Source: Candidatus Cloacimonadales bacterium
Lineage (GTDB): Bacteria; Cloacimonadota; Cloacimonadia; Cloacimonadales; JAFGVF01
NCBI GenBank assembly: GCA_963678315.1
Contig: OY782781.1
Span: 1,216,001-1,280,000, forward strand
Direction of reading: 5' to 3'
Length of the DNA stretch: 64,000 nt
How positions within the stretch are numbered: the stretch's first letter is position 1; every line of letters begins with the position of its first letter. The notes beneath the pieces were generated by a model. The model saw nothing but the letters and a program-made list of their open reading frames with translations, had not been told where the DNA came from and made no database searches. Both the position numbers and the translations under genes were made by a program. Below, in pieces: positions 6,347 to 57,734 of the stretch.

Positions 6347-6352
6347 ATTATT

Positions 6353-6380
6353 GGCTCGCATTGTGCGAGCCTTTTTATTT
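6353..6380 (+). terminator. Intrinsic terminator after etfB
   Basis: GGCTCGCA-TTG-TGCGAGCC hairpin followed by a T-tract. Confidence 0.85.
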
Positions 6381-6460
6381 TGTTTAAAAGGGTTAAATTT
6401 AATCTTTTCTTTAGAATGTGGACAGGTCTACATTCTTAACTTATTTATGGAGTAATCGAT

Positions 6461-7273: not shown

Positions 7274-7899
7274 AAAAGCTACTAGTAATCTTTTTATTCT
7301 TAGCTATATTAGTAGGATGTTCAACCCATAAAGAGCTAACTATGGAAGAGAAAAAGACTAGGTTAAAGCAGAATCTTGCCCAACTGAATAGATTCCAAGC
7401 AACAGGTATCTTAGAAGTTAACTACAAGGAACTTTCTTTAAAGAAAGAATTCATTATGAAGAAGAATCCACAAGAAATAAGGTTTGATGCTATTAATAGC
7501 GGAGTAATGGCTCTCACAGTATCACCTTTTGCATCTGGGTATATTGGAGAAGAAGTCTATATTACTTCATATAATAACGAGACTTTTGAAGATGTAATTA
7601 TGCCTTTTGACCAAGTACAGCCATACTTGGATTTTGAATCCTTTACTCCCGCTGAAATCAACAATATCATTCAGACAAAGAGATTTGTTGTGGGAGAAAT
7701 GATAATGACTTTTAATGACTCTTATCAGGTAGCTACTTTTGAGTTGGATAATAAAGAAGTTAAGTTTATTTATAATAAGCAGAATATTCTGGATACTTTG
7801 ACAATTGATGATGATGAGGTTGATGCAAAGTTAGTTTTAGATACATTTAAAATTGGTGATTATAAGATTAATAAAATAAATAGGAGAAACCATGATTAA
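7270..7899 (+). CDS. Lipoprotein, possibly LolA/LolB-like fold
   Basis: Lipobox LVG-C, beta-rich body, translationally coupled to lgt. The fold is an inference. Confidence 0.6.
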   Translation: MKKLLVIFLFLAILVGCSTHKELTMEEKKTRLKQNLAQLNRFQATGILEVNYKELSLKKEFIMKKNPQEIRFDAINSGVMALTVSPFASGYIGEEVYITSYNNETFEDVIMPFDQVQPYLDFESFTPAEINNIIQTKRFVVGEMIMTFNDSYQVATFELDNKEVKFIYNKQNILDTLTIDDDEVDAKLVLDTFKIGDYKINKINRRNHD

Positions 7900-10108: not shown

Positions 10109-11980
10109 ATGAGTTTACACTTAATTGAATTACAGATTTTTGAAATAGGACTTTTAGTTTTTGCTGCCTATATGGGTGGAATAATTGCCAGAAAACTAAG
10201 GATTGGAGAAGTAATTGGTCAGATATTGGGTGGGGTCATAGTTGGACCGAACACTTTAAAACTGATAGATAACTTCTTAGTTAGTCATAGTTATCTTAGT
10301 AAATATCGTATTTTACAGCCACTCTACAGCTTTTATAATGACAGTTTCCAGTCTTTTGATTCTATGTATGTTGCCTATCAGGATACATATTCTCATATGC
10401 AGTTTTTTACATTCTTATTCTTAGGCTTAATTACTTTTTCATTAGGGGAAGAGTTACATTTAGAAAGAATGAAAAAAATAGGTTGGAGTGCTGCAATAAT
10501 AACATTAGTACAAGCTTTTGCAACAGTAGCATTAATCACAATCTCATTCCATTATATATTTGGTTTCCCTGTTATTATTGGGTTACTTCTAGGTTCTATT
10601 GGTGTGGCAACAGCTCCTGCACTATCTTTTATTTTGATGAATAAATTTAAAATTGAAGGAAACTTAAAAAATATTTTAGCGAATATAATAGTTCTCGATG
10701 ACTTAACAGAAGTTTTATTATTTTCTATCTTTTTAGGAATTGCTCCCTTTATAATCACAGGGGGAGAACTTTCTATCAGTCATTTGACTTTTCATGTAGT
10801 TGAAGAGATTGCAATGGCATTGCTGGTAGGTGCAGGAATATTTTTTGCTTTAAAATTAACCATAAAATCTAATGGTAGTGAAGATGACGAAGACTATTCT
10901 GAAGAAGGTTCTTCTTTATCAGCCGTACTATCAAATCATCCTACTCCATCAGTGGAAATACTATTCATAACCATAGGTATAATAGCGATGGGTATTGCTA
11001 CGGCAATTCATTATGATTTACCATTCTTGTTATCATCAATGTTTGCAGGTTTCTTGATATCTAACTATCATCACCAGGCAATCTTTGATTCTTTAAAAAT
11101 CAAGAACGTAATGCCAATATTTAATCTAATGTTCTTTGCCTTAATTGGTGCTTCAATAAATTTAGAACAATTCTCTATGCAAACTTTATCCTTTGTATTG
11201 GTATATGTTCTAGTAAGATCAGTTGGTAAATACTTTGGAACTTACCTAGGTTGTAAATTTACAGGACTTGATAAAAAAATCACTGCAACTGTTCCTAAAT
11301 TAATGCTTCCTCAAGCTGAACTAGCTGCTATTGAAACAATCATTGTAGCTAATACTTTGGGCAATATTCCAGAAAGTCAAAGCTTGGTAGCTACTGTTGT
11401 TCCAGCCTTAATCATTTTCCAACTTGGTGGAGCTTACTTATCAGAAAGAACACTTTTGCGTTGGAAATCATGGGTTACTGGGGAAGAAAAAGCTTATAGA
11501 AGTGAGATTCCTGTTGGTAAGGAGATGGAACTAAAATTCTTAATTGAAGATAGAATTGTTAGGCTTTCTCCAAATAGCAAGACAGAAGCAATTACTATGA
11601 TGGCTAATGAACTTAAAAGAAAGAATATAATAGCTGATACTGATGTGGTAACTAATGCAATATTTGAAAGAGAAATGTTGGCAACAACTGGAATTGGTAA
11701 AGGACTAGCTCTTCCGCATTGTAGGATTGCTAGTGTTGATAGAGTAATGGTAGTTTTAGCTTACTTTGATAAAGCAGTTGATTGGAACTCATTAGATAAC
11801 AAGGCTGTTGACTTAGCCTTTATGATTATTACACCTCAGGAATCACCAGAGCTACATCTACAGGCAATTAGTAAAATTAGTAAAGCAGTTAAAGAAATTA
11901 ACTTTAGAGAAATAATACAAGGAAACTCACCAGATAATTATGATGAGTTGTTAGGAGAAATGGAGGGACAAAGTGTTTGA
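10109..11980 (+). CDS. Cation:proton antiporter (CPA2-like) fused to a C-terminal PTS EIIA domain
   Basis: About 12 TM helices with ATAPA and VLDD motifs. The C-terminus has ERE...TTGIGKGLALPH (EIIA phospho-His). Confidence 0.88.
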   Translation: MSLHLIELQIFEIGLLVFAAYMGGIIARKLRIGEVIGQILGGVIVGPNTLKLIDNFLVSHSYLSKYRILQPLYSFYNDSFQSFDSMYVAYQDTYSHMQFFTFLFLGLITFSLGEELHLERMKKIGWSAAIITLVQAFATVALITISFHYIFGFPVIIGLLLGSIGVATAPALSFILMNKFKIEGNLKNILANIIVLDDLTEVLLFSIFLGIAPFIITGGELSISHLTFHVVEEIAMALLVGAGIFFALKLTIKSNGSEDDEDYSEEGSSLSAVLSNHPTPSVEILFITIGIIAMGIATAIHYDLPFLLSSMFAGFLISNYHHQAIFDSLKIKNVMPIFNLMFFALIGASINLEQFSMQTLSFVLVYVLVRSVGKYFGTYLGCKFTGLDKKITATVPKLMLPQAELAAIETIIVANTLGNIPESQSLVATVVPALIIFQLGGAYLSERTLLRWKSWVTGEEKAYRSEIPVGKEMELKFLIEDRIVRLSPNSKTEAITMMANELKRKNIIADTDVVTNAIFEREMLATTGIGKGLALPHCRIASVDRVMVVLAYFDKAVDWNSLDNKAVDLAFMIITPQESPELHLQAISKISKAVKEINFREIIQGNSPDNYDELLGEMEGQSV

Positions 11981-30934: not shown

Positions 30935-32513
30935 TTAGCATACCCCCATTTTTTTTAAGTAAAATTGATTCGTAGTTGTAACTTATCATGATATTCACCT
31001 TTATGAGGTACCATTTTCTTTAATTTAGAATTACTAAATATATTTTTTATTATTCTACTAAGTTTTTAATACACATAGGTATGCTTTATATTTTTTAGAC
31101 TACCAAACTCCGGATATTGGTACAAAAGATCATCAATATACCTTATCGAAGAATAAACAATATCTACCTCAACCATCAAAATAGTATTAATGTTTTTTAG
31201 TCCTATATAAGACATTAATTGAACACTTTCCCAGTTAAATTCTTGTTTTATATGTCTATGAAACTCTTCAATTTTCCACCTTTTTCTATATCCTCGTAGA
31301 GTTTTCAATATAACCTCATAATCAGTTAAACTATCATCGTTAAAATTGCACAAGAAATAAAATAGTCCCCCTTTTTTACCATATCTTGCAATAACAAGAT
31401 TTGCCTCAACTGTGTCTGGGTATTTTCTTTTGTGAGGATTGGTTCTTATCTTAACTTTTTTTACTCCACATCTTAAAACTGTTTTATCAGAAGTTATAAC
31501 TTTATGTTTTAGTTTAACTTGCTTAACCACCGATACAAAATCAATTTCTTTATCATCAACAATGAGATCTCTTCTACCTGTACTTCGAAGTATATAGTTG
31601 TTTTCGTTTTGGGTGAGTAAATTTATTAGTTTGCGACTATCATAGCCTCTATCAAAAACAAAAGTTCCTTTGTTATTGCTGTGAATGGTAATATCTATAA
31701 TTTTATCTTCAAGCATGTTTTTTGAAGTGTCTTCCTCTATCTTGTTGCTATATAACTTACTACATATAGGTAATATCGAATGATATTTACCATTATCTGT
31801 TAATGAAGTGATGTTGAATAAATGATAACCTTTAACACGTTTCCCCGTAGATCCATCTCTAACTACTGATAGACCTTCTAATTTATTAGATCTTGGCTTA
31901 ACAATATCCGAGTCATCAACAATAAAATAGGTATCTTTCGTAGCTTTTGAACAGTTTGATTTTAATATATTATCACTAACTATATTTCCAAGCTTTTCTT
32001 TCTTAAGGTTTCTATATAATCTTTCACACACTTTGTCTAAACTAATGCTTTCATGTAAAGAAGTAGCTATCTGCCTTACTATTATTGAACCTGAAGAAAT
32101 AATGCCTTTAGTTATGTCTTTCAATGCTTTATATTCAGGCAGACTTAATCCTTGTGCATACTTTTTTACTTTTTTGGAAAATTTCCCTTGCAATTTTACA
32201 ACACTATTTTTTACTAATTTCATATTTAGAGAGCTCCCTATTTTTTGTTTTGTAGTAAATTCAATTTATTTAAGGAGCTCTTCTTTTTCAATAAATATTT
32301 TAATTTATTTTATTATTTATCAATTACTTATATCCCCTCGAAAAATGGCTTAATATTAGCCTTTTCTGGGAAGTTAAATTAAAATTTAATCATAAAGTTG
32401 ATTTTTGAAATACATGCCGTAAATCTAATTTTTACCTGACAAACTATATCTCTAGAATACTTATTCACTCTTAGTTAGCTCTTTGGCTATATGGTTTTTT
32501 GGGGGTATGCTTG
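30935..32513 (-). mobile_element. Insertion sequence (IS4-like DDE clan), 1,579 bp
   Basis: Terminal inverted repeats TTAGCATACCCCCA / TGGGGGTATGCTTG, flanked by a 12-bp direct repeat TAATACTTCATC (30923-30934 and 32514-32525). Confidence 0.92.
30955..32223 (-). pseudogene. DDE transposase with a probable premature stop at 31066-31068
   Basis: IVDDSD, DRGYD, RWKIEEFHR motifs. The frame stays open for 36 more codons after the TAA, to a stop beside the terminal IR. Confidence 0.75.
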
Positions 32514-32680
32514 TAATACTTCATCTGGGTTCAATAACGATAACCAAGTTCTTTGCTAGGTATTAAAATGTATTTAAGTTCAATTATAACAGTACTATAG
32601 AAATGTAAAAATAATAAATAAGTTATTGACAAAAATGTATCTATTTTGAAAAAATAGCAATAAGAAAGGAGAACGAGATA

Positions 32681-33214
32681 ATGAAAACTAGAAATATTGT
32701 ATTAATTGCAATGATAGCTATACTTTTATCTATGGTATCATTGTACGCTACAGGTCACAGTGGCCATTGTGGAAAATGTGAAGGTCATTCAGAAATTGAA
32801 GAAGTTGAAGTAACTGGAAGAGTCACAAAAACCGATACTTGCTTAACCTTAACAGAGCAGGGAAAGGAAACAGTTTTAAAGCTTGTATTCTCTGAAGAAA
32901 TGGAAGCAAAGGCAGATTCAATAGACACTCAAAGTATTTATACATTTAAGGGTAAATTATCAAATAGTGGAAAAACTATTTTTGTTAGTCAGTTTAGTGA
33001 GTTAACTCAAACTAAAACAGCAGGCTATCAGGTAATCCCTGAAAAATGTATAGGTTGTCGATTATGTGTGAGAAATTGTCCAGAAAATGCTATCAAAATG
33101 GTAGATGGGAAAGCAGTAATTGACCAAGAAAAATGTGTTGATTGTGGAATTTGTAAAGATGGTAACGGGAAGTTTAAGGGTTGCCCAGTAAAAGCAATTG
33201 AAAAAAGCAAATAA
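32681..33214 (+). CDS. Exported 2x[4Fe-4S] ferredoxin-domain protein
   Basis: Sec-type signal peptide, His/Cys-rich GHSGHCGKCEGH, a beta-rich domain, then CIGCRLCVRNCP and CVDCGIC-x8-CP. Confidence 0.85.
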   Translation: MKTRNIVLIAMIAILLSMVSLYATGHSGHCGKCEGHSEIEEVEVTGRVTKTDTCLTLTEQGKETVLKLVFSEEMEAKADSIDTQSIYTFKGKLSNSGKTIFVSQFSELTQTKTAGYQVIPEKCIGCRLCVRNCPENAIKMVDGKAVIDQEKCVDCGICKDGNGKFKGCPVKAIEKSK

Positions 33215-33230
33215 GAATTGAAGTGGAGAT

Positions 33231-33770
33231 GTGATGAAAAAAATATTATTTGTTGTGACTATAGTCTTGTCTTTAGTTGTCACTCTTTTTGCAGTTTATC
33301 AGATTAATCCTTCTGATTGTAGAAACTGTGGAAGATGTGTTAGTGCATGTGATGAAGATGCAATTTATTTTGATACTAGTGTTGGAAAATACCAAATTGA
33401 TCCTAACCTATGTGAAGATTGTGGTGATTGTGTTGATAGATGTAGAGATGATGCTATTGAGCAAGTTCCAGTGTCTAATGATGATACAGATGTAGAAATT
33501 GTTACTTTAAGTGTAAATGTTTTTCCTAATCCAACAGCTACAAAAGCTATCTTTAAGGTATTCACTGAAGATAGAAATATGGAAGGAAAACTTTCAATAT
33601 ATAATATGAAGGGTCAAAAAATAAGATCATATAATGTAGATAGTAAGAATAATGTTACTAGTTGGGATTTAACCAATTCGAAAGGAACTAGAGTAGCACC
33701 TGGAAATTATCTCTATAAATTAGAAGCTGGAGATAAAACTATAACCAGAGCTATGACAGTCTTGGATTAA
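33231..33770 (+). CDS. Secreted 2x[4Fe-4S] ferredoxin fused to a C-terminal FlgD-Ig / T9SS-A-like sorting domain
   Basis: Signal peptide, CRNCGRCVSAC and CEDCGDCVDRC, then VFPNP...IYNMKGQKIR...WD..N..G..V.PG.YLYKL. Confidence 0.85.
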   Translation: MMKKILFVVTIVLSLVVTLFAVYQINPSDCRNCGRCVSACDEDAIYFDTSVGKYQIDPNLCEDCGDCVDRCRDDAIEQVPVSNDDTDVEIVTLSVNVFPNPTATKAIFKVFTEDRNMEGKLSIYNMKGQKIRSYNVDSKNNVTSWDLTNSKGTRVAPGNYLYKLEAGDKTITRAMTVLD

Positions 33771-33771
33771 T

Positions 33772-34023
33772 ATGAATAAGAAACTGTTATTAATAATTAT
33801 TGTAGCAGTTGCATTTTGTGGGTTTCTCGTTGCTGTAGTAGTGACTGAGAAACCTTTTGTGCAAAAGAGCGATTGTGTTGGATGTGGAGATTGTGTAAAC
33901 GAGTGCCCTGTTGATGCTATTGAAATTGTGCATGGTAAAGCAGTTATTGACCAAGAGAAGTGTATTAACTGTCAGCTATGTGTAAAAAAATGTACTTATA
34001 ACGCTATAAAAGTAGGAAAATAA
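33772..34023 (+). CDS. Membrane-anchored or exported 2x[4Fe-4S] ferredoxin
   Basis: Long N-terminal hydrophobic helix, CVGCGDCVNECP and CINCQLCVKKC. Confidence 0.85.
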   Translation: MNKKLLLIIIVAVAFCGFLVAVVVTEKPFVQKSDCVGCGDCVNECPVDAIEIVHGKAVIDQEKCINCQLCVKKCTYNAIKVGK

Positions 34024-34268
34024 TGAAAAAGATTACTCTAATAGTACTGATTGGCTTGCTTGTTTTTGTGACTATATCTTGTAAGAAACCATCTGATAAA
34101 GAATACCATGTAGATAAATCTTCTTGTACTGCTTGCGGAGAATGTATTGATGCTTGCGATTACGATGCAATTGAATTTGATACAGATGGAAAGGCTGTGA
34201 TTGATCAATCAAAATGCAAAGCTTGTGGAGATTGCATTAAAGTATGTCCTGAAGGAGCAATCTATTAA
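34023..34268 (+). CDS. Lipoprotein 2x[4Fe-4S] ferredoxin
   Basis: Signal peptide with lipobox-like TIS-C-KK, CTACGECIDAC and CKACGDCIKVCP. Confidence 0.85.
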   Translation: MKKITLIVLIGLLVFVTISCKKPSDKEYHVDKSSCTACGECIDACDYDAIEFDTDGKAVIDQSKCKACGDCIKVCPEGAIY

Positions 34269-35479
34269 TGCGTAAAATATTCTTAACCTTGTTTTTACTA
34301 GCAGTCTCGCTGATATGGGCAGGCAACTATTGGAATCAGTCTCAAGTAACTTTAACCCAAGATGAAGATGCTGATTATTGGGGATTTAAGAATAATCATC
34401 TTGCTGAATATTATCTTAATAATCTCTATCTAGAAATAGGTCTTAATACTTTCCTTTCAGAAATCAGTTCTCCGGACTATATTGAAGAGAGAAGTTCTTA
34501 TGTTACTAATGAAATAAAATCTTTTACTATATATAATATTACTTCTAACTCAAGTCTTAAATTAGGCTTTAACAATAATTATTATGATTACAATAAAAGC
34601 ACTACTAATACTTTAGTTGAGGGGATAGGACTACCAAGCCAAACATTAGCTAAGAACTATTCATATCTTGTATATGAAGGGCAATTTAATAATTTGCAGA
34701 TTCTTAGTGGTGTAAGGTATAGAACAAATTATTATGATCATCAAATTGACCTAGGTGGTTTAATAAATACTGCTGAATATCATACTTATGATGAATTCTA
34801 TAAGGATATATATCTTGCCTATAACTTGAGTGAAGAAGTAAGGATTTATTCTGATTTCTATAATAAGACTTTCTATAGCTCAACAAAAGACTTCCTGGAT
34901 CCAAAACGTGAATATGATGTTACTGAATATGGTTTAGGTGTAAATTATACTTCAAAAGATTTCTTTAATGGAAAGCTGGTAGAAGATTTCTATTATGAAA
35001 AAAGATTAGGCGATAATCTACAAGAGTATGAAGAAGATTATTTTGTGAATAGTTTTAGATATGTTCTTGCTTTGCATGATAGATTAAATGCATTCTGTTC
35101 CTACATAAGCCACTTCTCCTATGATTCTGAAGATAAAGAATTTTATAGACTTGCTAATATGGTTAGAATGCAACTTCGCTATAACATATCTTATGATGAT
35201 GGCGATTCTTATATTTTAGCAGGAACTAGACTAAATCCTGAGAATCAATCACGAAGATACTTTGTTGAAGTTAAATATCCATTAATGGATAAGCTCTACT
35301 GTCGAGTAAATGAAACTTACTATTATGAAACATATAATTCTGTTTCAACAGCCCTTGAATACTACCTTACATCTGCAAGCCATATATATGTAGAAAATAA
35401 CTATACAGACTCTCTAGATGATTTTGGCTACTATTCTTATAAAAACCAATTCTTACTTGGTGCTAGGATGTATTTCTAA
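34268..35479 (+). CDS. Predicted outer-membrane beta-barrel protein
   Basis: Signal peptide, Tyr/Asn-rich alternating beta strands, no TM helices, C-terminal FLLGARMYF (BAM-type terminal Phe). Confidence 0.7.
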   Translation: MRKIFLTLFLLAVSLIWAGNYWNQSQVTLTQDEDADYWGFKNNHLAEYYLNNLYLEIGLNTFLSEISSPDYIEERSSYVTNEIKSFTIYNITSNSSLKLGFNNNYYDYNKSTTNTLVEGIGLPSQTLAKNYSYLVYEGQFNNLQILSGVRYRTNYYDHQIDLGGLINTAEYHTYDEFYKDIYLAYNLSEEVRIYSDFYNKTFYSSTKDFLDPKREYDVTEYGLGVNYTSKDFFNGKLVEDFYYEKRLGDNLQEYEEDYFVNSFRYVLALHDRLNAFCSYISHFSYDSEDKEFYRLANMVRMQLRYNISYDDGDSYILAGTRLNPENQSRRYFVEVKYPLMDKLYCRVNETYYYETYNSVSTALEYYLTSASHIYVENNYTDSLDDFGYYSYKNQFLLGARMYF

Positions 35480-36465
35480 TGCTTAAAACACTTATTGAAG
35501 GATTTACTTTAGGTTTATCCACAGGCACACTTTGCCTTGTTTCCTGCACACCAATTTACCTACCTTATCTTGTATCGGAAGATAGATCCTTTGCAAAGAA
35601 TATTTGGAAGGTTATGGAAATATCTCTAGGACGTTTCTTTTCCTATATAGTCTTTGGTTTAATGGCTGGTTGGTTAGGAAGCAACATTGGAACAATTAAT
35701 CGGGATTTGTTTACTGGTATTGCTTACATCCTCTTATCAATATTCTTAGTAATGAGCGTTCTTAGGACCAAAAAGAAAGGAAAAGGATGCCATGTTCCTA
35801 AAATGCTAAAAGTTACTTCTTCTGCCTTTTTGCTAGGTGTATTTACAGGAATAAACTTCTGTCCTTCTTTCTTGATAGCTCTTTCAAAAGCAGTTGATTT
35901 AGCAGGTCCAATAAGTGGAGCTTTATTGTTTATGGGCTTCTTTTTGGGGACATCTATATTTTTAATACCTTTAGCCTTTTCGGGTTTCCTTGCTCAAATT
36001 AAGAAACTCAAGCTTGTAGCTCAAATTGCTTCTATTGCCATAGCTGTCTGGTTTATATATTCTGGTGCTACAAAAGTGTATGATTATATTAAAGAATCCA
36101 ACCAAGAATATTATATTGTTGAAGCAACATCAGCTGAATATTCTATGGTGTTGATTTCTAGTCAGGATACTGGGGCAAACTTCTTGACTTTGACTGATTC
36201 CCTTTTCTCCTTCAAGAAAGATCAGTTCACTCTAATCAATGATTCAATGATAGAAGCATCTGAATTAGAAGAATTCAATGATAATACTATTTTGCTTATT
36301 GAAAAGAAACTGATTACAGAAGCTAACCATGAAGCCTTGCAAAAGTATCATCATTTTATTATCACTAAAGATATACCAGCGGAAAATATCTTAGCCTTTC
36401 TTAGAAATACTAAAATGAAATTGAAACAAGATGCTCATATACATTTTTCTTTAGAAAGTAAATAA
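35479..36465 (+). CDS. DsbD/CcdA-like (DsbD_2 / TauE-SafE clan) inner-membrane protein with a soluble C-terminal extension
   Basis: Six TM helices, GLS.G..C..SC.P in TM1, GR..SY...G..AG..G, G.NFCP in TM4, FFLGT. Confidence 0.75.
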   Translation: MLKTLIEGFTLGLSTGTLCLVSCTPIYLPYLVSEDRSFAKNIWKVMEISLGRFFSYIVFGLMAGWLGSNIGTINRDLFTGIAYILLSIFLVMSVLRTKKKGKGCHVPKMLKVTSSAFLLGVFTGINFCPSFLIALSKAVDLAGPISGALLFMGFFLGTSIFLIPLAFSGFLAQIKKLKLVAQIASIAIAVWFIYSGATKVYDYIKESNQEYYIVEATSAEYSMVLISSQDTGANFLTLTDSLFSFKKDQFTLINDSMIEASELEEFNDNTILLIEKKLITEANHEALQKYHHFIITKDIPAENILAFLRNTKMKLKQDAHIHFSLESK

Positions 36466-36487: not shown

Positions 36488-36518
36488 AAGAGTCTTGATA
36501 AGTCAAGACTCTTTTCTT
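36488..36518 (+). terminator. Terminator closing the ferredoxin operon
   Basis: AAGAGTCTTGA-TAAG-TCAAGACTCTT followed by T-rich sequence. Confidence 0.75.
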
Positions 36519-36705
36519 GTTTGCAAAATAAAAGGATAAAGCTTTTTACATTTAGAATCCTAATAAGCACAGTGACTTTTTAAGTTCTAAAACATTATTT
36601 AGGATAATCTTAGCTTTTGGAATAAAAATCCCATCGCATAAATATGATTTAGGTTGAATTTACAATCTATTAGGATGTTTAATTTTGAAAACATGTGAGG
36701 TGTTT

Positions 36706-39700
36706 ATGCAAAAAAAAGTAAGCTTATTGTTTTGGTTTATAAGCATGTTTATGGTACTTTTACCAACTTTTTCCTATGGGCAATTTACTCTTGAGAGTGA
36801 TACTGAAGATCAAACAATTATTGTATTTAATCTGCCTGATTATAATATAATACAAGCAAATCATGTTAATAAAGGTTACAAAGTAATTGAAACTAGTAAA
36901 CATAATTACAGATTTGATGAAGGTTTACCTAACTTACCATTTTACAATACTACAATCCAAATCCCAGATTTGGGAGATGCTACATTTGACTATTCGATAT
37001 TAGAATCAGAAACTATTGAAAATACAGCTATTTTACCTTATTTTGAAGAAGTACCGGTTCTAGCAAATTCTACAGTAAAACAAGAAGAAAATAACCAATG
37101 GTATCCGGAAGATGAGGTGTTAATAGGCGAGCCAGCAATAATGAGAAACAAGAGATTAATCAATATAATGATTAACTCTTTTCGATACAATAACAATAAA
37201 CAAGAACTTCAAGTTCTTAAAAAAGTTAAAATAATAATCAATTATAATCGCAGTAGAACAGGAGTTAATCAGCTAATTTTTAATAATGTGGGCTCTTCTA
37301 ATGAATTCGAGGATGTTTTTAGAGCTAACATTCTTAACTATGAAAATCATGATAATAGGTCTGAATTTCAAAACCCTTCTATCCTGTATATATATAATTC
37401 TGTTTTACATGAAGGTTTTCTATCTTCCTTGAATGAGCTTGTTGAATGGAGAAGAGAGTTGGGATGGAAGGTTAGAGTTTTTAATTGTATGAATTTAACT
37501 AAAGAAGAGATTAAAGCGTATATTCAAGAGTGTTATTATTCGGATATAAATCCCATTACACATGTTACTATATTTGGCGATAATGGTATTCCATCATATT
37601 TTGAAGATATTGAGAGGGAAGATCCAACCTATGTTAATAGTGATCATCCTTATACATTGCTTTCTGGGAATGATTATCTTTCAGATATCTTTCTAAGTAG
37701 GATGTATGTAGATGATGATTATAAGGCTGCTGTTTTTGTAAATAAAATTATTAGTTATGAGAAGCAGGATATAGTAACAAATACTGATTGGTTTAATAAG
37801 AATATATTAGTAAGTGCTATTAATCAGGGTGTAGATGGTACGGTTATTTCAAGTGTTTTTACAAACCAATACGTGAATGAGATAATGTTAAGCTATAATC
37901 CTGCTTATGAGAATTCTGTTTATGATTATAGTTTGTCTACAAGTAACGTTATGGATGATATCAATGATGGCTGTCTTTTTTTTAATTATAGAGGAGATGA
38001 AACTATTTTGAATTTACACAACTACCTGGGCAACCAACTGGCAAACTATAACAAGTTACCAATTTTAGTGTTGTATACAGATAGCAGTCTGACATATTCT
38101 AACCGCTTTGGCAATTTAATGACAGTAATTGGGACTCCTGATACTCAATTAGGATCACCAGCTGTTTTTGGAATGGATACAGATGATAGTCATACAGCCT
38201 ACAATAATATTTTATCAGCTTCTACAATGGAATATTTCTTTGTAAATGATGGATGGTATTGTTCTAGTGCATTAAACAACGCTAAGTTGAGATTATGGCA
38301 AACTTATAATATACATAATCCTCAAGTCGCTGATTTACAAATGAAAGCTGCTGCACTCAATGGTGATGCTGCTATGAAAGTTTGGAAAGGTGTTCCCAAA
38401 GATATGGATGTATCATGTGATGATATTATTTTAGTAGGAAGTGACCAGTTTGAAGTTAGTGTAATGGAAGGTAACCAAGCTTTAAAAGATGTATGGGCAA
38501 CAATAAAGATTGGTGATGAGACCTACTCAACTTATACAGATTCTCGAGGTATTGCTATGATAGAATTTGCTATGGAAAGTGGGGAGGATGTTCTCTTAAC
38601 TCTATCTAAAGAGGGTTATAGAACACAACAAATGCCTTTATCTATTGAGGAAATTGAAGAAAGTATTATCATTGAAAATACTTCCTTATACTCCAATAAT
38701 CAAGAGTGTGATTTTTTATTAGCTCAATCTAGCTATGACTTAGAGTTGGAACTAAAAAATACAGGAACAGTCTTACTCCAAGATGTAGAGGTTACAATTA
38801 CCTGTGATTCTGAGGATATTAATTTTGATGCTGGTCAATTAAACTTTGGTGACTTAGCTTGTGGCGAAACTGGTCTAGGGAATTTCTCTTTCTCGGTGTT
38901 CTCTATTAATAACGATAAAGCTATAAAGTTTGATATTCTAATTGAATCTGGAGACAGGTCGTGGAATAAATTTATCTATTTTGATACTCAGACTCCAATT
39001 ATTGAGATTGATCCACAATTTGTAACTAATAGCTATAATTTTTTTCATGGGATAGTTGATTTCAGGATAGTTAATAACGGTAATCAAGCTCTAAATAATG
39101 GATTAGCTACTTTAACTACTAGTAATGGAGCTTTTACCATTACAGATAGCTCTTTTGAATTTAATGCGTTAGACATTGATAGTACTTTGACTCTAAACTA
39201 CTCCATTTCTTCAATAGGAAATATTTATTTGGGTACAATTGTACCTTTTGAGTTAGAGATAGAAGGGGATGGATATCATACAGTTTTACAGACGAATGCA
39301 TCTTACGCTTATCCTAGCCAAACTCAACCTACTGGTCCTGATCCCTATGGATATGTTATATATGATTCTTATGATACAAATTATGAGGAATGCCCAAACT
39401 ATGAATGGATTGATAGTTCTGAAATTGATAATGGTACTTATTTTGAGCTTGATTTTGACTATTCTACTCCTGAAGAAAACACAGTTCAATGCATAGAAAT
39501 GCCTTTTACCTTTAGTTTTTATGGGGTAGAATATGATTCTATATCTGTGTGTGCAAATGGATGGTTATCTTTTGGATATACCGAGCAAGCAAGCTTCAGA
39601 AATTGGAGTGTTCCTGGTCCTTTAGGTCCATCTCCTATGCTTGCTGTCTTTTGGGATGACCTTGAAATGGAAGAGTCTTCAAGTTGCAATTATGTTTATG

Positions 39701-40869
39701 ATATTGATAATCATTGTGTTATTATAACATGGCAAGACGTTGAAATATACAATAATGTTGCTCTTATTACTTTTCAAGCTATATTATATGACCCTGATTA
39801 TTATGATACCTCAACTAATGATGGACCGATTAAATTACAGTATCAAGATATATGGATTTTTGAAGTTAATCAACATAGTGGGGGGAATTATGTAACGGTT
39901 GGAACAGAAGATCATACTAGCCAAGTTGGATTAGAATACACTTTTAATAATCAATATCCTGTTACAGCACATCAATTAGAGGATAATTTCGCCCTTTACA
40001 TAACTACAGAAACTGAACAAAAAGCTCCTATAGCCATAGCAGAAATAAGTGATATATATATTGATGAAGATTCTGAATTCTCTGGATTAAATACAATCAA
40101 TTTGTTTAGAGACCCTAATAATGATGACTTTGAGATTTTCCTTGCAAATACAGAACATTTTACTATGACTATTAATGAAGCAAATATTGCTACTATTAGC
40201 CCAACAGAAGACTGGTATGGTGTTGAAGAAGTCACTCTATGTGCTCAAGATGATTTTAATCCTGATTGCGGAGAAATATCTTTTACTATGAATGTAAATC
40301 CTATCAATGATAGGCCTGTTTTACTCAATTCTTACCCTGAAGAAAGTGACTTGATAAGTGAGGTTGATTTCTTTGGATTTGGAGTTGATGTATATGACCC
40401 AGATAATGATATTGACTATACATGGAAGATAAATGGCACGATTATTGAGGGCGAGACAACTGATACATTGTACTACTATTTTGAAGAATTGGGTATCTAT
40501 AATATTAAATGTTATGCTACAGATGGTATGGTTACTATAATGACTGATTGGAATATTACTGTTACGACTGATAATGAAGTAGAATATGCTTTAGTTAACT
40601 CTCTATCCCAGAATATTCCTAATCCATTCAATCCTTCTACTGCTATAAATTTCTCTATTAAGAATAGTAGTAAAGTATCATTAATCATTTACAACATAAA
40701 AGGTCAAAAGGTTAAAACTCTCGTTTCTGATAGATTAGAAAAGGGAAATCATACTGTTGTTTGGAAGGGTAATGATGATAATAATCAAAAGGTTTCATCA
40801 GGTATTTACTTCTATAGATTAATCACTGATGAATTCCAATCTACAAGAAAGGCTATTATGCTGAAATAG
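36706..40869 (+). CDS. Large secreted C25 (gingipain)-like protein with propeptide, Ig-like domains and C-terminal sorting domain
   Basis: EGLPNLP propeptide, EWRRELG, SDHPY.LL.G.DY..D..LSR, NKIISYE, LNGDAA..VW. C-terminal QNIPNPFNP...SSGIYFYRL. Confidence 0.8.
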   Translation: MQKKVSLLFWFISMFMVLLPTFSYGQFTLESDTEDQTIIVFNLPDYNIIQANHVNKGYKVIETSKHNYRFDEGLPNLPFYNTTIQIPDLGDATFDYSILESETIENTAILPYFEEVPVLANSTVKQEENNQWYPEDEVLIGEPAIMRNKRLINIMINSFRYNNNKQELQVLKKVKIIINYNRSRTGVNQLIFNNVGSSNEFEDVFRANILNYENHDNRSEFQNPSILYIYNSVLHEGFLSSLNELVEWRRELGWKVRVFNCMNLTKEEIKAYIQECYYSDINPITHVTIFGDNGIPSYFEDIEREDPTYVNSDHPYTLLSGNDYLSDIFLSRMYVDDDYKAAVFVNKIISYEKQDIVTNTDWFNKNILVSAINQGVDGTVISSVFTNQYVNEIMLSYNPAYENSVYDYSLSTSNVMDDINDGCLFFNYRGDETILNLHNYLGNQLANYNKLPILVLYTDSSLTYSNRFGNLMTVIGTPDTQLGSPAVFGMDTDDSHTAYNNILSASTMEYFFVNDGWYCSSALNNAKLRLWQTYNIHNPQVADLQMKAAALNGDAAMKVWKGVPKDMDVSCDDIILVGSDQFEVSVMEGNQALKDVWATIKIGDETYSTYTDSRGIAMIEFAMESGEDVLLTLSKEGYRTQQMPLSIEEIEESIIIENTSLYSNNQECDFLLAQSSYDLELELKNTGTVLLQDVEVTITCDSEDINFDAGQLNFGDLACGETGLGNFSFSVFSINNDKAIKFDILIESGDRSWNKFIYFDTQTPIIEIDPQFVTNSYNFFHGIVDFRIVNNGNQALNNGLATLTTSNGAFTITDSSFEFNALDIDSTLTLNYSISSIGNIYLGTIVPFELEIEGDGYHTVLQTNASYAYPSQTQPTGPDPYGYVIYDSYDTNYEECPNYEWIDSSEIDNGTYFELDFDYSTPEENTVQCIEMPFTFSFYGVEYDSISVCANGWLSFGYTEQASFRNWSVPGPLGPSPMLAVFWDDLEMEESSSCNYVYDIDNHCVIITWQDVEIYNNVALITFQAILYDPDYYDTSTNDGPIKLQYQDIWIFEVNQHSGGNYVTVGTEDHTSQVGLEYTFNNQYPVTAHQLEDNFALYITTETEQKAPIAIAEISDIYIDEDSEFSGLNTINLFRDPNNDDFEIFLANTEHFTMTINEANIATISPTEDWYGVEEVTLCAQDDFNPDCGEISFTMNVNPINDRPVLLNSYPEESDLISEVDFFGFGVDVYDPDNDIDYTWKINGTIIEGETTDTLYYYFEELGIYNIKCYATDGMVTIMTDWNITVTTDNEVEYALVNSLSQNIPNPFNPSTAINFSIKNSSKVSLIIYNIKGQKVKTLVSDRLEKGNHTVVWKGNDDNNQKVSSGIYFYRLITDEFQSTRKAIMLK

Positions 40870-49863: not shown

Positions 49864-50421
49864 AATATTCTCCCATTAGTTATTATTTAACTAAATAGTA
49901 TTTTGTTGTCAAGTAATTATGAAATACTATTATATCTTTATTATTGTGGATGTTTTTTACATAAAGTAAAGTAAGAAAAAGATCATTTACATATAACATT
50001 ACGAGTTAACTAAAAAAAATTATCAAAATATTTTTGATTTAAATGAAACTGCTCTCGTAAACCTTGCATTAAAGAGATGGAATAATCTAGATGGGATTCC
50101 CACAGAATATATTATAGACTCTAAATTAGCTCAAAAGAAATACAAAAAATCAAAAGATCAGTTAAAGTCTTTCTTAAAAAGAGAATATTAAATTGATTAA
50201 TAACTCGTTAGTATCTAATTTTAAATAAATCAAGAGTTATAAGCATATACATTATTGTTCCACTTTTCTTAATATATTTTGTGTATTAATATAATAATTT
50301 TTATTGAGTTCCTAGATAACAAGAAAGAATATACATAGTCTGATTTAATAAAAACCTTGACAACTGTATTTTATTTAGTAATTTTAGCATAAAAATGTAA
50401 ATATTGAATATAGAGGTGAGT

Positions 50422-51771
50422 ATGATTATTGATTTAACAATGGAGAATGTTTTTTCAATAGGTAAAGAACAGAAATTCAGTTTTGAAGCATATGAACCAG
50501 CTGATAATGGTTATGAAGAACATTATATCTGTAAAATACCCAAAAGAGGAGAATATAAAAAAGAGGAAGATAGAAATTACAGATTGTTAAAAGTAGCACT
50601 ATTATTAGGAGCTAATGCTTCAGGAAAATCTAACATACTAAAATCATTTGATTTATTAAATGAAATCATGCTCAAGACAAGAAATAGAAATGAGAAATTC
50701 AATTATGAACCATTTCTTTTAAATCCTAAGATGGAAGAAGTAGCTTCTAAATTATGTTTGAACTTTTTGCTAGAAGATGATGATGGACAATACTCACGGT
50801 ATAAATATCTTATTGAGTTCACGAAAAATGAGATCTTACGAGAGCGCTTAGATAAATATCTATCAAGTCAACCTTCACTAGTATTTGAACGAGTAAGTGA
50901 TGAGGATAATGCGCGAGGTTTTAGGGTTGAGTATGGCAAAAAATTTAAGCCAAATCAGATTGAGACAATGACTATTGAAGCTAACACTCTTCCCAATAAT
51001 TCAATAATATCGATTTTTAATAAAAGCAATCCCTTATTTAATGAGTTAAAAAAAGTATATGGTTGGGGTAAAAAATCTTTTACAATGATAATAGCACCTA
51101 ATACTAATACAACCAGATATACAAATAGATTATTGGCAAGTGAAAGAAAACTAAGAGATTTAGGGAAATCTGTTTTAATTAATGCTGATTTTAACATCTC
51201 AAATATTGATATTGATGTACAAGAGATAGAATTAAATGATAAAGAAAAAAAATTACTAAAAACACTATCTGAAAAAGCTGAAGAAAATATATCTATTGAT
51301 GATTTAAAGAGAAGGTTTTATGACTTGAAACTGACTCATAAAGTACAGATTGATGGTGAGGAAGTTGAAAGAGAATTTGAGGAAGACTTAGAGTCTTTGG
51401 GTACAATGAAATTTTATAGTTTACTGGGTCCATATTTTTCTGCATTTAAGATAAATAGATTGATGATGATTGATGAAATTGAAACGTCACTTCATTGGGA
51501 ACTTCAAAAGAGTTTAATAACTTTATTTCTGATTAATTCAAAAAAGTCTCAACTTATATTTGCAACTCACAATCCTCTTTATTTAATGTGGGATATTATT
51601 AGAGCTGATTCTATCTATTTCACAGAAAAAAAAGATAATGGTGAGACTGATTTATACTCCTTAGTAGATTTTAATAATATAAATAGAGAAAATATATTCA
51701 AGAAGTACTTAATTGGCAATTATGGAGCTGTTCCTAATATAAATGAATATGACTTAGATTTAAAATTGTAG
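50422..51771 (+). CDS. AAA_21 / RloA-like ABC ATPase (abortive infection/TA-type)
   Basis: GANASGKSN Walker A, ESLGT, IDEIETSLH, QLIFATH, YL.G.YGAVP tail. Confidence 0.85.
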   Translation: MIIDLTMENVFSIGKEQKFSFEAYEPADNGYEEHYICKIPKRGEYKKEEDRNYRLLKVALLLGANASGKSNILKSFDLLNEIMLKTRNRNEKFNYEPFLLNPKMEEVASKLCLNFLLEDDDGQYSRYKYLIEFTKNEILRERLDKYLSSQPSLVFERVSDEDNARGFRVEYGKKFKPNQIETMTIEANTLPNNSIISIFNKSNPLFNELKKVYGWGKKSFTMIIAPNTNTTRYTNRLLASERKLRDLGKSVLINADFNISNIDIDVQEIELNDKEKKLLKTLSEKAEENISIDDLKRRFYDLKLTHKVQIDGEEVEREFEEDLESLGTMKFYSLLGPYFSAFKINRLMMIDEIETSLHWELQKSLITLFLINSKKSQLIFATHNPLYLMWDIIRADSIYFTEKKDNGETDLYSLVDFNNINRENIFKKYLIGNYGAVPNINEYDLDLKL

Positions 51772-51778
51772 GTATTAT

Positions 51779-52465
51779 ATGGGCAGAAATAGGATAAAAA
51801 GAGCTGAACGTAAGGGAAAATCCAAAAAAAATAAGTCCTTTCAAAATAGTGAATTTGATGGAAAAGGAGCAAGGAAGGATAGGCATCAAATAATCATATT
51901 TTGTGAAGGTCCAACAGAGCAAGAGTATTTTAAACAATTGAAAGAATATGAAGATCTTTGTAATATATACATTGAACCAGATATAAAAGCTGGATCTGAT
52001 TGGGAAAAGATATTTAATAGACTTAATAACTCATATATAGATGATGTATCATGTAGTTTCTATTGTGTCCTAGATTTAGACCAGCAAATTAATCAAGATA
52101 AAATGCCTGAATACTTAACTAAAAAAGGTAAACTACCGATACCCATAGAAAATGTAATTGAAACTTATATGTGCTTTGAAACATGGATTTTAATGCATTA
52201 TAAAGATAATCCTAAATCGGGAACATACTGTAGAACATCAGTAGATGAATTAAAAAAAATTGAAGGGTTTGGCAACTATATAAAAGGTGATAAATTTAAC
52301 AGTATATACTCTATTTTAAAAGATAATCAAAAAAAAGCATGTACCAATGCTGAACGTTTAGAACTTAAAAGAAATAAAGACATAAAAAAAGGGATTTATA
52401 AAGAGAAAGAGTGTCGTTTAGTTTATTCAAGTATGTGGAGATTAATTAAGGAGTTGTTAAAATAA
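51779..52465 (+). CDS. RloB-like protein
   Basis: IFCEG.TE..YF, CVLDLD, CFETWILMHY, A..NA..L motifs. Directly follows the RloA-like ATPase. Confidence 0.85.
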   Translation: MGRNRIKRAERKGKSKKNKSFQNSEFDGKGARKDRHQIIIFCEGPTEQEYFKQLKEYEDLCNIYIEPDIKAGSDWEKIFNRLNNSYIDDVSCSFYCVLDLDQQINQDKMPEYLTKKGKLPIPIENVIETYMCFETWILMHYKDNPKSGTYCRTSVDELKKIEGFGNYIKGDKFNSIYSILKDNQKKACTNAERLELKRNKDIKKGIYKEKECRLVYSSMWRLIKELLK

Positions 52466-55898: not shown

Positions 55899-57734
55899 AT
55901 GAATTTACAGCATATGAAAATGCAAATTCTGGAACTAGGATTACTTATCTTATCTGCTTATATATTCGGACTTATTGCTCGAAAAGTTAAGGTTGGAGAA
56001 GTGATAGGACAAATCTTTGGCGGGATTATTGTCGGACCACACTTCTTAGAACTTATACATAAAGTGTTAGAAAAGTTTTCCTCTTTGCATAATTTTAAGA
56101 TACTTAAACCTATCTATCATTTTTACAATTCTGAATTTCAAGAATATAGTGAAATTCTTGAAAGTTACCACTTCTTTGTATTTCTTTTCTTAGGAATGAT
56201 TGCCTTTTCATTAGGAGAAGAGCTACATAGAGATAGATTACGTCAAGTTGGATTCAAAGCTGTCCTAATATGCCTGATTCAAGGGGCTTTAACCTTTGCA
56301 ATAATATCAGTAGGTTTTAGATATGTTTTCCATTTTGAATGGATAAACTCTCTGATAATCGGGTCAATCGGAATAGCAACTGCTCCAGCCTTAACGTTTA
56401 TCTTAATGTCTAAGTTGAAAATTACTGGATCTTTGAAGAATATTCTCGCAAATATAGTTGTTCTTGATGATATCATGGAAGTTGTCTTCTTTTCAGTATT
56501 TTTAGGCATTGCAACTGCAAAGCAAAATGGTGAGCACTTAGCAGTCGGTCACCTCGCAATGCATGTTGGAATGGAATTACTATTAGCAACTATAATTGGC
56601 TTAGTAATTTTCTTGGTGTTTAAATTTACTGTAAAAGAGAGAGCCTCAGAAGAAGATATTAAAACTGATGATAGCTCATTTTTATCGACTGTGTTATCTG
56701 ATCATCCAACACCATCAGTTGAGATTATGTTAATTATGGTAGGTGTTATTGCAATAGGTATATCTATCGCTATACATTTTAATCTACCATTCTTAATTAC
56801 AGCTGTTGTTGCAGGATTTCTTATATCCAATTTTCATCATAACGCGATCTTTGAATCACTTAAAATTGAAAATGTAATGCCTATATTCAATCTGTTGTTC
56901 TTCGCAATAATTGGAGCAAGTGTAAGAATTGATTCTTTTACTTCTGATACATTGCTTCTTGCTCTAGGGTATATTGTGCTTAGATCATTCGGTAAGCTAT
57001 TTGGTAACTGGCTAGGAGCAAAAGCAACTAAACAGGATCCAAAAATTGTAGCAGCACTGCCTAAATTAATGCTTCCACAAGCCGGAATGGCTGCTGTTGA
57101 AACTATTCTTGTTGCTACTATTCTAGCTAAAAGTGGTGGTTTTACAATCTTTAATACAGTTATACCTGCATTGATAGTTTTTGAATTAGGTGGTGCTTAC
57201 CTCTCTGAAAGAACTCTAATTAAATGGAAAAGTTGGATTGTTGGCGAGAAAGAAGCTCTGCAATCAAAAACTCCAAACAATGAATTCTCTTTAAATGAGA
57301 TGTTAGGTAACCGAGTGTTTGAAATGATGGCTACAACCAAAGATGAAGCAATCTTTGAATTAGCTCAAACAATGGTGAAGAATAACGTTATAAATGAAAC
57401 CTCAGAGATTACCTTCGCTATATCTGAAAGAGAAAAGCTAGGTAGTACAGGCATAGGCAATGGAATAGCAATACCACACTGTAGAATCTCAGGTATTGAT
57501 AAACCTGTGATTACTTGTGGTCTGCTAAAACATAGTATTGACTGGCAAGCACAAGATAAACAAGATATAAGCTTGTTATTCCTAATTCTATCTCCCGATG
57601 ATAAACCTGCTTATCACCTAAAAGCGGTTAGAACTATAGCAGCAACCATATCTAAGAATTTAGACTTAAAAGAAAAATTACTTAACGCTGTAAAAAGCAG
57701 AGATATTGAATCCTCTATTTTAGAATTGATTTAA
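55899..57734 (+). CDS. Cation:proton antiporter fused to PTS EIIA (paralog of 10109-11980)
   Basis: Same architecture and long shared motifs (HPTPSVEI, NVMPIFNL, PKLMLPQA, GGAYLSERTL), EIIA GIAIPH. Confidence 0.88.
   Translation: MNLQHMKMQILELGLLILSAYIFGLIARKVKVGEVIGQIFGGIIVGPHFLELIHKVLEKFSSLHNFKILKPIYHFYNSEFQEYSEILESYHFFVFLFLGMIAFSLGEELHRDRLRQVGFKAVLICLIQGALTFAIISVGFRYVFHFEWINSLIIGSIGIATAPALTFILMSKLKITGSLKNILANIVVLDDIMEVVFFSVFLGIATAKQNGEHLAVGHLAMHVGMELLLATIIGLVIFLVFKFTVKERASEEDIKTDDSSFLSTVLSDHPTPSVEIMLIMVGVIAIGISIAIHFNLPFLITAVVAGFLISNFHHNAIFESLKIENVMPIFNLLFFAIIGASVRIDSFTSDTLLLALGYIVLRSFGKLFGNWLGAKATKQDPKIVAALPKLMLPQAGMAAVETILVATILAKSGGFTIFNTVIPALIVFELGGAYLSERTLIKWKSWIVGEKEALQSKTPNNEFSLNEMLGNRVFEMMATTKDEAIFELAQTMVKNNVINETSEITFAISEREKLGSTGIGNGIAIPHCRISGIDKPVITCGLLKHSIDWQAQDKQDISLLFLILSPDDKPAYHLKAVRTIAATISKNLDLKEKLLNAVKSRDIESSILELI

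Follow-up and report, generated by a model that had tools for sequence, protein, structure and literature searches.

A conserved operon of exported ferredoxins, a plug-less beta-barrel and a DsbD_2-family protein as a candidate heme-free electron route across the envelope of Cloacimonadota

The window analysed here, a stretch of 64,000 nucleotides from the genome of a Candidatus Cloacimonadales bacterium (assembly GCA_963678315.1, contig OY782781.1, positions 1,216,001 to 1,280,000 of the forward strand), contains at 32681-36465 an operon of six genes, which encode four ferredoxin-domain proteins with predicted export signals (F1 to F4), a protein modelled as a transmembrane beta-barrel, and an inner-membrane protein of the DsbD_2 family. 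This set resembles a heme-free path for electrons through the envelope of a cytochrome-free anaerobe, of a kind so far undescribed, its function being predicted. The reading that we prefer, held tentatively and at a little short of an even chance, is that the operon encodes a chain or conduit of iron-sulfur (Fe-S) redox proteins outside the cytoplasm, supplied with thiols or electrons by the DsbD_2 protein. The presence of Fe-S clusters outside the cell, the formation of a chain, and the direction and partner of the electron flow are what we infer from the features described below.

The host genome is a single contig of 2.99 Mb, 97.9% complete. All six open reading frames (ORFs) of the operon lie on the plus strand within 32681-36465, and the features of the region are the following:

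32626..32655, plus strand: promoter-like site (TTGACA, 18 nucleotides, AAAAAT, with a TG extension; 10 of 12 consensus matches), weak evidence, as such sites occur at chance frequency in the AT-rich region that holds it
~32665, plus strand: ribosome-binding site AGGAG, preceding the ATG of F1
32681..33214, plus strand: F1, with predicted signal peptide, HxxHCxxCxxH motif, beta-rich domain of about 85 amino acids and C-terminal dicluster Fer4 domain
33231..33770, plus strand: F2, with predicted signal peptide, dicluster Fer4 domain and type-A C-terminal sorting domain of the type IX secretion system (T9SS)
33772..34023, plus strand: F3, 83 amino acids, with predicted signal peptide or anchor and a minimal 2x[4Fe-4S]-type ferredoxin domain
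34023..34268, plus strand: F4, 81 amino acids, with a lipobox (...TISC) and a minimal 2x[4Fe-4S]-type ferredoxin domain
34268..35479, plus strand: predicted barrel, 403 amino acids, with signal peptide, 20 modelled strands, no plug and a C-terminal Phe
35479..36465, plus strand: DsbD_2-family inner-membrane protein, with six predicted transmembrane helices and a Cys-free alpha/beta C-terminal domain
36488..36513, plus strand: intrinsic-terminator-like hairpin closing the operon, with an 11-pair stem (4 GC pairs) and a T-rich tail

The original prediction, which had been made from the letters of this DNA, described six co-oriented genes whose last three junctions overlap as TAATG and which are closed by one terminator, and this layout is confirmed in all its parts. 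Thus, TAATG is found at the F3/F4, F4/barrel and barrel/DsbD_2 junctions, whereas F2 and F3 are joined by TAA-T-ATG and F1 and F2 are separated by a spacer of 16 nucleotides. The hairpin at 36488-36513 has no comparable counterpart inside the operon, where the sole match, at 35523, has 5 pairs and is at chance level (4 found against 1.7 expected from shuffles). The true start of F2 is probably the ATG at 33234, because it is preceded by GGAG.

F1, F2, F3 and F4 all match the Pfam family Fer4 (PF00037), with 42-56 bits against a cut-off of 21.1, and NCBIfam agrees. It had been claimed that the motif CxxCxxCxxxC occurs twice in each of the four proteins, which is correct for F2, F3 and F4; F1 has one exact copy (CxxCxxCxxxCP) and a second motif of the form CxxCxxC-x9-CP. 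The ligand cysteines are strongly conserved. In F3, the eight of them are invariant (39 aligned rows, after removal of two rows with wrong starts); in F4, seven are invariant and no fewer than 90% of the 41 rows retain the eighth, two having Asp; in F2, seven are invariant and the eighth is Asp in one of 11 rows; and in F1 (17 rows) six of the eight are invariant, a seventh is retained by no fewer than 90% of rows and the last is variable, with CIGTTLC and CDGDxxC among the variants seen. The recurrent change is Asp at the second position of the motif (CxxDxxC), found in two rows each of F4 and F1 and in one of F2, with Thr at this position in two further rows of F1. Asp at this position ligates the cluster in the ferredoxin of Pyrococcus furiosus. 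This exchange speaks against disulfides, because it maintains metal ligation, while a disulfide scheme would be left with an unpaired cysteine. The Pro after the last cysteine and the Ile/Ala positions of true ferredoxins are conserved too. In sum, the ligand pattern of F1 to F4 looks like that typical of real Fe-S ferredoxins, and cluster binding is predicted from sequence.

F1 carries, in addition, the His/Cys motif HxxHCxxCxxH at residues 25-39, after the signal peptide. The motif is confined to one family of genomes, in which the relatives keep only HCGKH, and other lineages lack it. The N-terminal domain of F1 reaches scores of at most 0.77 in the ESM Atlas, with no named family.

Clostridial-type 2x[4Fe-4S] ferredoxins are normally cytoplasmic, and the export of F1 to F4 is thus the central point of this analysis. 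Their N-termini are rich in Lys/Arg, followed by a hydrophobic stretch. All 41 of the 41 orthologues aligned have the lipobox cysteine of F4, which comes after [AGS] and a hydrophobic stretch; these rows derive from 40 loci kept out of 49 barrel matches by a filter that required the barrel ORF to have 370 amino acids or more and both small ferredoxin genes to abut it. F2 begins with MKK and a hydrophobic stretch, and its sorting domain is recognised by two models, Por_Secre_tail (32.2 against 27 bits) and TIGR04183 (42.7 against 23 bits). The genome encodes the corresponding PorU sortase, which matches NF033707 with 573.6 bits against a cut-off of 420; the same search returned 47 more matches under the cut-off, mostly to the C-terminal sorting-domain region of the model. 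In sister lineages, the slot of F2 is occupied by lipoproteins of 321-1417 amino acids, and, among those scanned, seven have a Fer4 dicluster at either terminus, with one to seven fn3 domains, which are modules of extracellular type, in between.

Four different export signals had been proposed for these proteins. Those of F1 (cleavable peptide), F2 (peptide plus T9SS domain) and F4 (lipobox) are upheld, whereas the long hydrophobic stretch of F3, interpreted at first as an anchor, resembles an ordinary cleavable signal peptide in most orthologues. The reality of the signal peptides, on which the original prediction depended, receives support from several independent lines that agree in pointing to export of the four proteins: the lipobox found in every orthologue, the T9SS domain over both cut-offs, the fusions of fn3 and Fer4 domains in sister lineages, and the lack of TatC that is described below. 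Moreover, the genome encodes 30 ORFs in which the motif CxxCxxCxxxC occurs; a signal-like segment at the N-terminus is present in no more than six, four of which are F1 to F4. The gathering of four signal-bearing ferredoxin genes in one operon is not due to chance.

TatC, of the twin-arginine translocation (Tat) system, has no match in this genome. A sample of 201 genomes of the phylum contains seven matches, six of them over the cut-off; among the 83 genomes of this sample that bear the operon, there is one over the cut-off and one weak match. Since TatC is lacking, passage of the exported ferredoxin domains through the inner membrane must occur in the unfolded state. According to the textbook rule, the only way out of the cytoplasm for an Fe-S protein is in folded form, via Tat.

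Cytochromes are equally missing from the picture. The family Cytochrom_C_asm (PF01578) has no match in the genome, none of 7497 ORFs contains three or more CxxCH motifs, and two such motifs are found in one ORF; it follows that the DsbD_2 protein cannot serve cytochrome c maturation. Likewise, no match to menA was obtained in the genome, which makes a quinol unlikely as the electron donor.

The operon is conserved beyond this genome, as the original prediction required. A homologue of the barrel is present in 16 of 16 loci from relatives across the order. Ferredoxin genes lie upstream of it in 15 of these loci, while in the remaining one (L036) most of them are downstream. The DsbD_2 gene follows in 14 of the 16, one more being cut by a contig end, and is lacking in genome G030, whose locus (L031) contains a NapH-like gene, ferredoxins and the barrel, with Fur and FeoB after the barrel in place of DsbD_2. 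A motif scan based on the DsbD_2 alignment gave 67 loci, nearly all from Cloacimonadota. When the count of synteny was restricted to the 57 loci with at least 2100 nucleotides of upstream flank, the barrel was directly upstream of DsbD_2 in 48 and at least two genes with Fer4 motifs were upstream in 50. The nine exceptions for the barrel include one locus with an altered gene order and three that encode a DsbD_2 protein of 454-455 amino acids and are devoid of ferredoxins. This longer variant (loci L086, L089 and L113, DsbD_2 at 6001-7368) is found in some Cloacimonadales, and neither ferredoxin nor barrel genes occur upstream of it.

Taking the DsbD_2 gene (E <= 1e-30) as the marker of the operon, it is present in 83 of the 201 sampled genomes of the phylum, in 61 of the 151 of high quality and in 36 of 61 genera; three large genera, sampled with 62 genomes, gave no instance of it. 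The operon is a widespread but accessory trait in the phylum.

The barrel protein has no Pfam family at E <= 0.1, no NCBIfam family and no match to MtrB_PioB. Its prediction as a beta-barrel is sustained by an AlphaFold2 model built on an alignment of 18 rows (pLDDT 87.0, pTM 0.78), which shows a signal helix and 20 strands without a plug; the orthologues end in Phe or Phe-Arg. The best Foldseek matches of this model are Cir and PfeA, at E ~1e-8, and MtrB (6r2q_B) appears at rank 10 (E 4.8e-8, TMq 0.47), no better than unrelated barrels. With VIA-align, BtuB reaches Z 16.6, VDAC/Tom40 about 15.5 and MtrB 13.9, at rank 27. On the strength of the model, the 403-amino-acid protein is a transmembrane beta-barrel, and its structural matches, which are generic large barrels, give no specific link to MtrB. 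The family is tiny: 121 relatives at E <= 0.001 were found among 1.84 billion representatives, and a word-based protein search returned 13 close relatives only, all of them without a Pfam family or an informative name.

The F4 gene always lies directly before that of the barrel. Taking into account this constant adjacency, the translational coupling of both genes and the fact that a plug-less barrel of 20 strands needs filling, F4 is the obvious candidate to occupy the lumen. The modelling of the barrel with the ferredoxins, which the original prediction had proposed, gave a weakly positive result for the F4 pair. The input was residues 19-403 of the barrel, residues 20-81 of F4 and two 4Fe-4S clusters, with an alignment of 41 rows for each protein. 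The complex obtained an ipSAE of 0.50 (runs 0.50, 0.50 and 0.65) against 0.00 for the best control, with a partner pLDDT of at least 77 and contacts that agree in at least 82%, and was graded as weak support. Of 157 solved complexes, 116 attain the same mark, as do 2 of 215 mismatched pairs, although scores of 0.60 or less include only 18 of those 157 complexes together with both mismatches that passed, and this calibration was made without ligands or user alignments, unlike the run of the barrel with F4.

The last protein of the operon matches DsbD_2 (PF13386) with 71.8 bits against a cut-off of 24.9, in agreement with its earlier description as DsbD/CcdA-like, and its gene is the only one of this family in the genome. 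Four cysteines (C19, C23, C104 and C128) are invariant in 57 of 57 rows, and also in an alignment of 13 rows. The model of the protein (pLDDT 87.5) comprises six transmembrane (TM) helices and a C-terminal alpha/beta domain, at about 208-328 (residues 211-325 of the model), without conserved cysteines. C19 and C23, the latter followed by [TS]-P, lie in TM1; C128, within F-C-P, is at a break in TM4, and C104 belongs to the loop preceding TM4, a strongly basic one. The positive-inside rule predicts that the N-terminus and the C-terminal domain face the periplasm and C104 the cytoplasm. In the ESM Atlas, the protein falls in a Cloacimonadota cluster of its own and among generic DsbD_2 clusters. 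No solved structure matches it by sequence profile at E <= 1, and a Foldseek search with the model retrieved nothing (best TM-score ~0.2). The top rows of VIA-align are RnfA (8ahx_A; Z 8.9, root-mean-square deviation 6.2 A, 149 aligned residues) and NqrE (7xk3_E; Z 8.8, 6.5 A, 154 aligned residues). Neither Pfam nor NCBIfam finds a thioredoxin family in the six proteins, and no DsbD_TM (PF02683), ApbE or flavinylated protein accompanies them.

The input of electrons has to be considered as well. In several lineages, a NapH-like (Fer4_5) membrane protein and a polyferredoxin of four clusters, anchored in the membrane, are encoded at the beginning of the operon. According to Pfam, no Fer4_5 protein is encoded within the operon of the window, and in this genome the equivalent genes lie ~593 kb away, at C1:1843117-1844478 (locus L124:1118-2479). 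The NapH-like gene (C1:1843117-1843896) encodes 259 amino acids with two CxxxCP motifs and the polyferredoxin has 192 amino acids; both are 36-42% identical to the copies found inside operons. This pair is located ~4 kb downstream of a gene resembling pyruvate:ferredoxin oxidoreductase. A NapH-like gene is present in 159 of the 201 genomes; 74 of these are among the 83 that bear the operon, and 85 are among the 118 that do not. Its frequency in operon-free genomes indicates a module of general occurrence, linked to the operon only in some cases, and it was rejected as an operon-specific partner, as its phyletic pattern does not follow that of the operon. Two ordinary Rnf/Nqr-type gene pairs are encoded elsewhere in the genome.

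In the mechanism that we propose, F1 to F4 would be exported by the Sec route. F1 and F3 would then reside in the periplasm, F4 would be lipid-anchored at the outer membrane, beside or inside the plug-less 20-strand barrel, and F2 would be delivered to the cell surface by the T9SS, its place there being taken in sister lineages by the fn3-stalk protein. The clusters would form after Sec export, in a sulfidic and Fe(II)-rich habitat. Electrons of low potential would travel along the chain between inner membrane and exterior, in place of a porin-cytochrome conduit. The DsbD_2 protein would pass reducing equivalents over the inner membrane via its membrane-embedded cysteines, and two options can be considered for it: it may keep the eight ligand cysteines of the apo-ferredoxins reduced so that clusters can form, or it may itself be the entry point of the electrons. 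CcdA carries out the same upkeep of reduced cysteines for apocytochromes, and a CcdA-like role of this kind would be the most economical one for the DsbD_2 protein. In its most complete form, the proposal states that apo-ferredoxins exported by the Sec, lipoprotein and T9SS routes, and loaded outside with the help of DsbD_2, would sit in and around the barrel and at the surface and form the first porin-ferredoxin conduit, free of heme and of low potential, for the direct exchange of electrons with partners or minerals; we regard this as possible but doubtful. The fn3 stalks of sister lineages could be swinging tethers in such a conduit.

Several observations weigh against an extracytoplasmic redox chain. 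First, the loading of clusters after Sec export is unprecedented, and no exported assembly protein was found in the genome: its IscU-like (NifU_N) and Nfu-like proteins have no signal peptide, and the family of A-type carriers has no match. We know of no mechanism by which a [4Fe-4S] cluster is loaded after Sec export. Second, no operon-specific electron donor at the inner membrane was found in the genome. Third, the docking of the barrel with F4, the pair that was modelled, is weakly supported. Fourth, the DsbD_2 protein has no sequence match to any solved structure, and the Z values of RnfA and NqrE are below the chance level for helical bundles. Fifth, a fixed wire can be ruled out for the outermost step in sister lineages, because one to seven fn3 domains between the Fer4 domains set them too far apart for tunnelling. 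As to expression, no RNA dataset was listed with the operon, and four RNA runs that share a species label with a DNA dataset containing it gave 0 reads, which speaks neither for nor against expression. Finally, the distribution of the operon is patchy, with 36 of 61 genera and none of the 62 sampled genomes of three large genera, and its neighbours in relatives are partly metal-related.

Among these neighbours, a heavy-metal P1B-ATPase is recognised by Pfam directly upstream of the operon, on the same strand, in two loci of genus g2 (L021 and L022), and it is likely present in three more (L023-L025), to judge from ORFs of 817-824 amino acids at the same place. It was rejected as a part of the system, since it adjoins the operon only in this genus and has no orthologue in the genome studied here. 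The place that it occupies in the sister genus is held in the window by a DDE transposase (DDE_Tnp_1, E 7e-8), encoded at 31066-32223 on the minus strand, directly upstream of the operon. In another relative, a classical DsbD with a thioredoxin domain is encoded directly downstream.

The metal-related neighbours form part of the case for a different function, which is unlikely in our judgement, namely the capture and trafficking of iron, iron sulfide or soft metals. In a sulfidic habitat, the Cys-rich domains would bind Fe/S or thiophilic metals, which would be handed from the surface copies, on a T9SS anchor or fn3 stalk, through the barrel to the periplasmic copies, with DsbD_2 as the transporter. 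DsbD_2 is the only inner-membrane component of the operon, and the wider superfamily to which it belongs includes metal-ion transporters. A binding domain on the tip of one to seven fn3 domains is typical of capture proteins and unlike a wire, and F1 possesses here its extra HxxHCxxCxxH motif. However, this motif is limited to one family of genomes, the P1B-ATPase of g2 lacks an orthologue here, and Fur-FeoB, directly downstream in one locus, follows the operon in that one of 16 only. Moreover, the pattern of two motifs, the Pro and the Cys-to-Asp exchange in four paralogue families fit stable cofactors better than transient cargo.

It might also be proposed, with quite a low probability, that the operon directs redox supply to the envelope, so that the reducing power of DsbD_2 would flow through the ferredoxins to envelope targets such as sulfur or polysulfide, to oxidised thiols or to the detoxification of oxygen and peroxide, the barrel being an anchor or a channel for substrates. 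Modules of the DsbD family and NapH-like modules are known to supply a large number of reductases outside the cytosol (Meheust et al. 2021, PMC8238504). The accessory character of the operon (83 of 201 genomes) and the classical DsbD found downstream of it in one relative would be in keeping with such a supply. Nevertheless, the operon encodes neither a catalytic reductase nor a thioredoxin-fold partner, the C-terminal domain of DsbD_2 is free of cysteines, and one component is sent past the outer membrane, either as T9SS cargo or, on an fn3 stalk, as a lipoprotein.

The domains could even lack Fe-S clusters altogether, their eight cysteines forming disulfides or binding Zn in structural or adhesive knobs, with DsbD_2 serving disulfide isomerisation. 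This is the classical role of DsbD-type proteins, the context of fn3 domains and T9SS is typical of adhesins, and a route for extracytoplasmic Fe-S assembly is neither known to us nor found here. Despite this, we consider such knobs decidedly improbable: the exchange of a ligand cysteine for Asp recurs in three families and would strand an unpaired cysteine, the Fer4 models are over their cut-offs with the Pro and Ile/Ala positions conserved, and a fold based on disulfides would be unlikely in strict anaerobes. As for a misreading of the signals, in which the N-terminal segments would be anchors and the ferredoxin domains an ordinary membrane-associated set on the cytoplasmic face, it can hardly be credited, even though ferredoxins of this kind usually stay in the cytoplasm and a Tat system is lacking here, in view of the lipobox cysteine in all 41 orthologues, the T9SS domain over its cut-offs in the presence of PorU, the fn3 fusions of sister lineages, the Lys/Arg-rich N-termini that place the N-terminus inside, and the translational coupling of these genes to that of an outer-membrane barrel.

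If an extracytoplasmic ferredoxin conduit exists, two textbook rules would be broken, that Fe-S proteins are exported only folded and by Tat, and that trans-envelope electron transfer in Gram-negative bacteria needs multiheme cytochromes. Such a conduit would work at a much lower potential than heme conduits, and it would provide a concrete molecular candidate for direct interspecies electron transfer by Cloacimonadota. Even if the conduit fails, the conserved targeting of ferredoxin domains by Sec, lipoprotein and T9SS signals in bacteria devoid of Tat still calls for an explanation, and the operon makes extracytoplasmic Fe-S assembly directly testable.

In the full-text literature, in a search outside which most subscription journals fall, no description was found of ferredoxins targeted by Sec, T9SS or lipoprotein signals together with a barrel, in line with the original prediction, which knew of no such system. 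Direct interspecies electron transfer by Cloacimonadota has been proposed from pili only (ISME J 2026, PMC13082233). Term searches of this paper, and of another recent one on Cloacimonadota genomes, gave no instance of 4Fe-4S, signal peptide or outer membrane.

The rest of the window contains other genes of interest. Past the terminator, at 36685-40869 on the plus strand, lies the gene of a gingipain-like protein of 1394 amino acids, with a C25 peptidase domain, a propeptide and a T9SS sorting domain, which is a further cargo of the T9SS and is distinct from the PorU sortase encoded at C1:1013127-1016348. At 50404-52465, on the plus strand, the gene of an AAA_21/AAA_15 ATPase is followed by an RloB-like gene; the pairing of such an ATPase with an RloB-like protein is characteristic of loci linked to defence or restriction. 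The window also encodes, on the plus strand at 10109-11980 and 55899-57734, two paralogues in which a Na+/H+ exchanger domain is fused to an EIIA-2 domain of the phosphotransferase system (PTS).

Four groups of known systems can be compared with the operon. RnfA/RnfE and NqrD/NqrE, which give the top structural matches of the membrane domain of DsbD_2, hold an intramembrane Fe-S centre by means of TM cysteines. These cysteines, in TM1 and TM4, presumably occupy positions comparable to those of DsbD_2, although no Rnf-Nqr Pfam match is obtained here.

NapGH, NosGH and MauMN pair a periplasm-facing poly-[4Fe-4S] ferredoxin with a NapH-type protein, and such a pair belongs to the operon in several lineages of Cloacimonadota. 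However, proteins of the NapG type are exported folded by Tat, and here there is neither TatC nor menA. In addition, no nitrate, N2O or amine enzyme accompanies the operon, and the NapH-like gene is not specific to it.

With DsbD and CcdA, the last protein shares the DsbD_2 match, six TM helices and an invariant cysteine next to Pro in TM1 and TM4. Its gene is encoded together with exported cysteine-bearing clients, as CcdA is with the handling of apocytochromes. It differs in two extra invariant cysteines (C19 and C104), a Cys-free periplasmic alpha/beta domain and the lack of a thioredoxin-fold partner. Unlike DsbD/CcdA and the extracytosolic systems described in PMC8238504, it has no ApbE or flavinylated protein beside it. 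Ferredoxins, predicted here as clients of a DsbD-type protein, have not been described in this role before.

Finally, the porin-cytochrome conduits, that is, MtrCAB of Shewanella, PioAB/MtoAB and Pcc of Geobacter, provide a parallel in organisation. No component appears to be homologous: 2x[4Fe-4S] motifs are found here and CxxCH hemes there, and features that define those conduits are missing, as there are no hemes, no maturation system and no family match that would place the barrel with MtrB. Export here would rely on Sec, lipoprotein sorting and the T9SS, and four small one-domain proteins stand in the place of deca-heme wires. Nevertheless, both share, by the locations predicted here, the operon logic of a periplasmic redox protein, a barrel and a redox protein at the surface, and in both the gene of a redox protein adjoins that of the barrel, which is plug-less in the Cloacimonadota operon.

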